The notes beneath the pieces are model-generated. The model did not search any database. It saw nothing but the letters and a program-made list of their open reading frames with translations, and was not told the DNA's origin. A program made the position numbers and the translations under genes. This document shows, in pieces, positions 38,411 to 38,866 of a stretch of DNA of 64,000 bases (the stretch's first letter is position 1; every line of letters begins with the position of its first letter). The stretch is from sequence record OR539219.1. The stretch is one strand, 5' to 3'. The stretch is from Escherichia phage vB-Eco-KMB39.

Positions 38411-38866
38411 TTATTTTAAATCGTCTGCCCAATCGAGTTTAAGAGGTTCTTTGTATTCACGATCTAATACAACCGGAATTTGTACATCACCGCTAAATGA
38501 TAAGGGCCCAACATTATAAGACAATGTTATATGCGGTGTGTAATCATCAAAATCATGTGTAGCACCTAGTGCCCGCGCATACATGTGTCGACAGCGCAGA
38601 TATTCAGAATCTAGCACAAGTACAAGAGTCGATCCATCTTGTGTTTTCCATACTTCTAAATGTCCAGAAGAAGCTACTTCAAAACTTCCACTCGATGGAA
38701 CATATGGAACATTTACTCTCGAATAACATATGGTCGAATGAATTTTTTCTCTAGGAACTGGATTAGGAACACGTAAAGAGCGCTGAAGTTCTTCCAGCGC
38801 ATCAAGTGTTAATTCTGAAAACTTAGCTGCTACATAAAGACCCGTTGAAAAGTCTTTAAATTCCAT
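38411..38866 (-). CDS. 57B: gp57B, a 2H-phosphoesterase-like protein; I recall this being the anti-CBASS cyclic-nucleotide phosphodiesterase Acb1
   Basis: 151 aa with two H-x-T/S motifs (HSTICY, HITLSY) characteristic of 2H phosphoesterases; position between ipI and 57A. Confidence 0.8.

Follow-up and report, generated by a model that had tools for sequence, protein, structure and literature searches.

We analyzed a stretch of 64,000 nucleotides of DNA from Escherichia phage vB-Eco-KMB39 (OR539219.1), referred to here as the window. At positions 38411 to 38866, on the minus strand, it contains an open reading frame (ORF) that is almost certainly acb1 (gene 57B of T4) of a T4-like Tequatrovirus, with a product that would be a 2H-family phosphodiesterase destroying CBASS signals; the phage also carries acb2 (vs.4). 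The features concerned are the following.

38411..38866, minus strand: acb1 (gene 57B) coding sequence, ATG to TAA, 151 amino acids plus stop (from the ORF list, T4 identity, PF23474, and 7T26)
38723..38740, minus strand: first 2H motif, HSTICY, residues 43 to 48, with H43/T45 corresponding to T4 H44/T46 (from sequence reading and alignment)
38516..38533, minus strand: second 2H motif, HITLSY, residues 112 to 117, with H112/T114 corresponding to T4 H113/T115 (from sequence reading and alignment)
38414..38437, minus strand: C-terminal lid, LDWADDLK, residues 144 to 151, with W146 corresponding to the nucleobase-stacking W147 (from T4 identity)
38866..39096, minus strand: gene 57A, tail-fiber chaperone, 76 amino acids (Pfam GP57, E = 4.3e-51)
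27250..27516, minus strand: acb2 (vs.4) coding sequence, cyclic-oligonucleotide sponge, 88 amino acids plus TAA stop

A local blastn comparison with T4 (NC_000866, 28 to 106 kb) showed that the window is collinear with T4 over about 34.9 to 99.5 kb, in the same orientation and with the usual T-even mosaicism, some segments being replaced. Megablast searches of a phage collection with positions 37400 to 40000 and 20000 to 44000 gave matches to hundreds of T4-like (Tequatrovirus) genomes, of which the best had 97.9% identity to the short query and 96.8% identity over 94% of the long query, and none was identical. Locally, the genes are arranged as in T4, namely, tRNA cluster, small ORFs, an internal-head-protein gene, 57B, 57A, gene 1 (dNMP kinase), and gene 3, so that acb1 occupies the same place as in T4, directly downstream of 57A and gene 1. 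On its other side the two phages differ: T4 has ipI downstream of 57B, whereas in the window an unrelated internal head protein of 85 amino acids (phrog_3499; 38081 to 38338, minus strand) adjoins acb1.

Several further differences from T4 were observed in the window. The T4 segment denV-ipII-ipIII is replaced by a single gene for an internal virion protein of 157 amino acids (DUF7412, phrog_3155; 29168 to 29641, minus strand), and the rest of the window gave no match to denV. The N-terminal signature MK(T/S)Y/F..F of these proteins recurs in a third one, encoded at 34272 to 34745 (minus strand). An HNH homing endonuclease gene (phrog_655; 40508 to 41167, minus strand) is inserted between genes 3 and 2, which in T4 are only about 100 bp apart, and a segB-like GIY-YIG endonuclease gene (35654 to 36304, minus strand) is located within the tRNA cluster. 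The window lacks equivalents of T4 mobB, mobC, the nrdD group I intron with I-TevII, mobD, and segC. The tRNA cluster itself (35138 to 36548, minus strand) encodes Arg(tct), Asn(gtt), Tyr(gta), Met/Ile(cat), Thr(tgt), Ser(tga), Gly(tcc), Leu(taa), and Gln(ttg); compared to the T4 set (Arg, Ile, Thr, Ser, Pro, Gly, Leu, and Gln), the window gains Asn and Tyr and loses Pro.

A sequence-only reading of this DNA had reported an ORF of 151 codons with the motifs HSTICY and HITLSY at exactly these coordinates, with the strand (minus) unstated, and had equated T4 gp57B with Acb1. This was correct, since the product of T4 gene 57B (NP_049750.1) was named Acb1 by Hobbs et al. in 2022 (PMC9117128). In a BLASTP comparison, all 151 residues of the window protein are identical to T4 residues 2 to 152. 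The DNA sequences match at 451 of 456 nucleotides, and all five differences are synonymous, which points to purifying selection. The annotated T4 protein has 152 amino acids, with one extra N-terminal Met; the window protein is one residue shorter because of a G-to-A change that turns the T4 sequence ATGATG into ATAATG and leaves only the second ATG. Window numbering of Acb1 is accordingly T4 numbering minus one.

The assignment to a 2H-phosphoesterase-like family, also made in the sequence-only reading, was borne out by profile and structure searches. The Pfam family Acb1 (PF23474) matched with 202.7 bits (cutoff, 27; E = 2.6e-60), residues 8 to 149 aligning with positions 1 to 144 of the 144-position profile. 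In a sequence search of the PDB, the product matched Acb1 of Erwinia phage FBB1 (7T26, apo form; 7T27, with 3'3'-cGAMP), the structural reference of the family, with E = 4.1e-62 and 68% identity over residues 8 to 148 (141 residues). A further match, 9Q2G, is a more distant solved Acb1 in which both His motifs align. FBB1 infects another host genus, and its Acb1 differs from that of the window at about one in three residues, but the HxT/HxT tetrad and the aromatic clamp are the same. The product was modeled by AlphaFold2 from its single sequence with a mean pLDDT of 37.9 and a pTM of 0.30, values too low to lend the fold independent support; it is the identity and E value to 7T26 that predict the 2H-phosphoesterase fold of Acb1. 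No NCBIfam model matched the acb1 or the acb2 product. A tblastn search located the acb1 product in 1,470 phage records; identity was ≥99% in 498 of these and reached 100% in phage T6.

T4 Acb1 has been described as a 2H-phosphoesterase fold with the HxT/HxT tetrad H44, T46, H113, and T115, and the H44A/H113A protein is inactive (PMC9117128). The same study showed that bases are stacked by Y12, W74, F107, and W147, that adenine N6 is read by E141, and that residues 145 to 152 of FBB1 Acb1 form a lid that contains W147. Loss of the catalytic His residues had been named beforehand as the observation that would speak against the assignment; upon alignment with the T4 and FBB1 proteins, both His and both Thr residues are kept. 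We then aligned nine sequences, comprising the window protein, FBB1 Acb1, and seven homologues from phage records with 47 to 31% identity, which came from six genera of Straboviridae (Krischvirus, Tulanevirus, Lazarusvirus, Pseudotevenvirus, Schizotequatrovirus, and Slopekvirus) and from the jumbo Salicola phage SCTP-2. H43, T45, H112, and T114 are among ten columns that are invariant in this alignment, down to 31% identity. The nucleobase-clamp residues Y11, W73, F106, and W146 (T4 Y12, W74, F107, and W147) are present in the window protein, as is the base-specific E140 (T4 E141). The T4 and window proteins thus share the tetrad, the stacking residues, and the lid, and no feature of the sequence speaks against the Acb1 assignment. 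Identity, family membership, and residue conservation were established here from sequence, while activity, mechanism, and in vivo role are taken from published work on T4.

The pair of motifs from which the sequence-only reading argued is real, HSTICY and HITLSY being the only occurrences of H-x-[TS] in the product, but it does not suffice by itself: at least two H-x-[TS] occurred in 16% of 100,000 shuffles of the residues of the product (P = 0.16). Two HxT/S motifs alone are therefore weak evidence, and it is homology that decides the Acb1 call. The shuffles would also allow for a chance or decayed ORF in which the motif pair is coincidental. This explanation is refuted by the homology statistics, however, and has a negligible probability in our view: the 151 codons are intact, the product matches the Acb1 profile and a solved structure over its full length, the differences from T4 are all synonymous, and the gene is present in all those phage records.

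Another function for the product would be that of a LigT-like 2'-5' RNA ligase or 2',3'-cyclic phosphodiesterase that repairs or processes RNA, for instance, in tRNA repair together with T4 Pnk/Rnl. Gene 57B is labeled "RNA ligase" in the RefSeq entry of T4 and in PHROG 755, acb1 is located near the phage tRNA cluster, and the product belongs to the 2H superfamily. LigT-type members of this superfamily (2'-5' RNA ligase and CPDase) resemble Acb1 in having two H-x-T/S motifs and in metal-independent transesterification via a 2',3'-cyclic phosphate, and a faint match to PF13563 (2_5_RNA_ligase2), the sole Pfam hit besides Acb1, was seen (E = 0.11). That match scores only 13 bits (cutoff, 27) and covers only residues 80 to 122, far below the score of the Acb1 profile, and the "RNA ligase" label is an artifact of homology transfer from before 2022 that reflects superfamily-level similarity only. 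The substrates differ as well, LigT acting on an RNA end and Acb1 on a cyclic oligonucleotide immune signal (PMC9117128). The identical protein was purified from T4 lysates by activity-guided fractionation as their cGAMP-degrading activity, and the Acb1 crystal structure revealed a pocket shaped for cyclic dinucleotides (PMC9117128). In a preprint reporting transposon sequencing by HIDEN-SEQ (10.1101/2025.11.20.689424), 57B/acb1 was nonessential on K-12 and depleted on a CBASS-expressing host, and thus conditionally important only on hosts that express CBASS. A role in RNA repair is very improbable on these grounds, and we reject the "RNA ligase" annotation because of the subthreshold PF13563 match and the published biochemistry of Acb1.

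The acb1 ATG overlaps the TAA stop codon of 57A (TAATG). A promoter and terminator scan of positions 37300 to 40600 yielded 15 promoter-like sites (11.7 expected) and no clear sigma-70-like promoter directly upstream of acb1. The sole convincing early-promoter-like sites (TTTACA-17-TACTAT with an upstream TG, at 38397 to 38369 and at 38067 to 38039) serve genes downstream of acb1. From the overlap and the lack of a convincing promoter directly upstream, we infer that acb1 is cotranscribed and translationally coupled with 57A. Expression together with 57A and gene 1 would proceed from leftward early/middle transcription units, as deduced from T4. The arrangement recurs in Krischvirus and Tulanevirus, in which the acb1 homologue directly follows an annotated tail-fiber chaperone gene; in the records from Lazarusvirus and Schizotequatrovirus, the homologue is preceded by a small ORF similar in size to 57A.

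The 57A gene itself shows two differences from T4. Its product has 76 instead of 80 amino acids, owing to a deletion of four residues (AKDE) near the C terminus, and its stop codon is TAA instead of TGA, with which the first of the two tandem 57B ATGs of T4 is gone. Given this loss, the second ATG is presumably sufficient as the start of acb1.

The second anti-CBASS gene, acb2, had been proposed in the sequence-only reading as a speculative candidate for vs.4 at 27250 to 27552. The identity held and the start did not. The ORF from 27250 to 27552 is the longest possible frame (100 amino acids) and has a TTG start inside the upstream vs.5, whereas the ATG at 27516 fits both the T4 annotation and the 7UQ2 crystal construct and is preceded by a GAGGA Shine-Dalgarno sequence. 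The alignment with an Acb2 reference that had been suggested as a check showed that the product is identical to T4 Vs.4 at 84 of 88 residues. It matches the Vs.4 structure 7UQ2 with E = 1.7e-53, the Acb2 "p26" structures being more distant hits; the Pfam family Acb2_Tad1_hairpin (PF24729) with 71.2 bits (cutoff, 27); and PHROG 717 with E = 6.3e-32, the family that Jenson et al. (2023) used for Vs.4 homologues (PMC10097602). Vs.4 and its homologues make up a family that is also named Acb2 (review, PMC10449767). As in T4, the gene lies between vs.5 and vs.3. On the strength of these sequence comparisons, the ORF at 27250 to 27516 is identified as the vs.4/acb2 orthologue.

Vs.4 of T4 forms a hexamer that binds three cGAMP molecules, with a Kd of about 30 nM for 3'3'-cGAMP (PMC10097602). 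Y8 and F82 stack on the ligand; H11, K23, and R79 contact it; L29, F33, A66, A73, and A77 form the interface; and T12, S74, and A77 are sensitive to mutation (PMC10097602). All of the functional residues listed (Y8, H11, T12, K23, L29, F33, L60, A66, A73, S74, A77, R79, and F82) are conserved in the window protein, including the cGAMP-contact residues Y8, H11, K23, R79, and F82 (plus S74) and the hexamer-interface residues L29, F33, A66, A73, and A77. The four substitutions relative to T4 (L44F, N46S, C50D, and F52L) lie between the two hairpin helices, outside the listed interface residues, and none is at a residue reported to be functional. Tight binding of 3'3'-cGAMP, shown for T4 Vs.4, is predicted for the window variant, which differs at 4 of 88 residues. 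The retention of Y8 and F82 further predicts that Panoptes-type guard systems will detect this phage (PMC12657218).

In the neighborhood of acb2, the ORF at the vs.5 position (27509 to 27730, minus strand) encodes 73 amino acids and shares 8 nucleotides with the start of acb2; T4 vs.5 encodes 58 amino acids, with a 36-nucleotide gap before vs.4. The adjacent vs.6 gene (27730 to 28147, minus strand), which encodes a GrcA-like autonomous glycyl radical cofactor, contains a perfect 55-bp tandem duplication (27868 to 27922 and 27923 to 27977) that T4 does not have. The duplication causes a frameshift that splits vs.6 into an N-terminal ORF of 76 amino acids and a C-terminal ORF of 66 amino acids, the latter with a GTG start and the glycyl-radical motif RVSGYAV. 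The repeat is present as a single copy in all ten best-matching phage records, and a 30-mer across the duplication junction had no exact match in IMG/VR; the duplication reflects either an inactivating mutation private to this phage or an artifact of assembly. About 2 kb from acb2, the tk.4 orthologue (25082 to 25561, minus strand) encodes a macro-domain protein (Pfam Macro, E = 1.3e-7), making it another candidate enzyme for processing ADP-ribose or nucleotide signals in the same early-gene region.

The anti-CBASS activity of the window Acb1 is predicted from that of the sequence-identical T4 protein, for which it was shown (PMC9117128; 10.1101/2025.11.20.689424). Acb1 would act as a small, metal-independent 2H-family phosphodiesterase that binds the cyclic di- and trinucleotide messengers produced by the CBASS cyclases of the host. 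The residues equivalent to T4 Y12, W74, F107, and W147 would stack on the ligand bases and the C-terminal lid would shut over the ligand, whereupon a rotated and strained adenosine could attack the 3'-5' phosphodiester with its 2'-OH. Acid-base catalysis by the H-x-T/H-x-T tetrad would then proceed via a 2',3'-cyclic phosphate intermediate to a linear 3'-phosphate product. Once the signal was removed, CBASS effectors (nucleases, phospholipases, and others) would stay off, and the cell would not commit suicide before phage replication ends. Acb2 sequesters the signal, whereas Acb1 hydrolyzes it; the Acb2 hexamer would hold cGAMP without cleavage, giving the phage two independent anti-CBASS layers. 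The strategy of destroying a defense second messenger is shared by Apyc1 and AcrIII-1, which are, however, proteins unrelated to Acb1 (PMC9117128, PMC12657218); Apyc1 targets the cyclic mononucleotides of Pycsar, and AcrIII-1 targets the cyclic tetra-adenylate of type III CRISPR (PMC12657218).

In addition to CBASS signals, Acb1 might act on another physiological substrate, such as the 2',3'-c-di-AMP of Panoptes, other immune or decoy cyclic nucleotides, or RNA 2',3'-cyclic phosphate ends. Overexpression of Acb1 from a plasmid unexpectedly triggered Panoptes (PMC12657218). A second substrate, if real, would help to explain the retention of acb1, coupled to 57A, in many genera of Straboviridae. 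The window provides no specific support for this idea, however, and we consider it unlikely.

Both identifications were already known for these proteins, so that nothing new is claimed for acb1 or acb2 and no new question is raised. Their value is that of a correct annotation: the two anti-CBASS factors of T4, the nuclease Acb1 and the sponge Acb2, are both intact in this phage, and the common database label "RNA ligase/hypothetical protein" is corrected for acb1. Such annotation is useful for predicting host range and for choosing therapeutic phages. With both Acb1 and Acb2 intact, the phage is predicted to be resistant to cGAMP- and cAAA-type CBASS.
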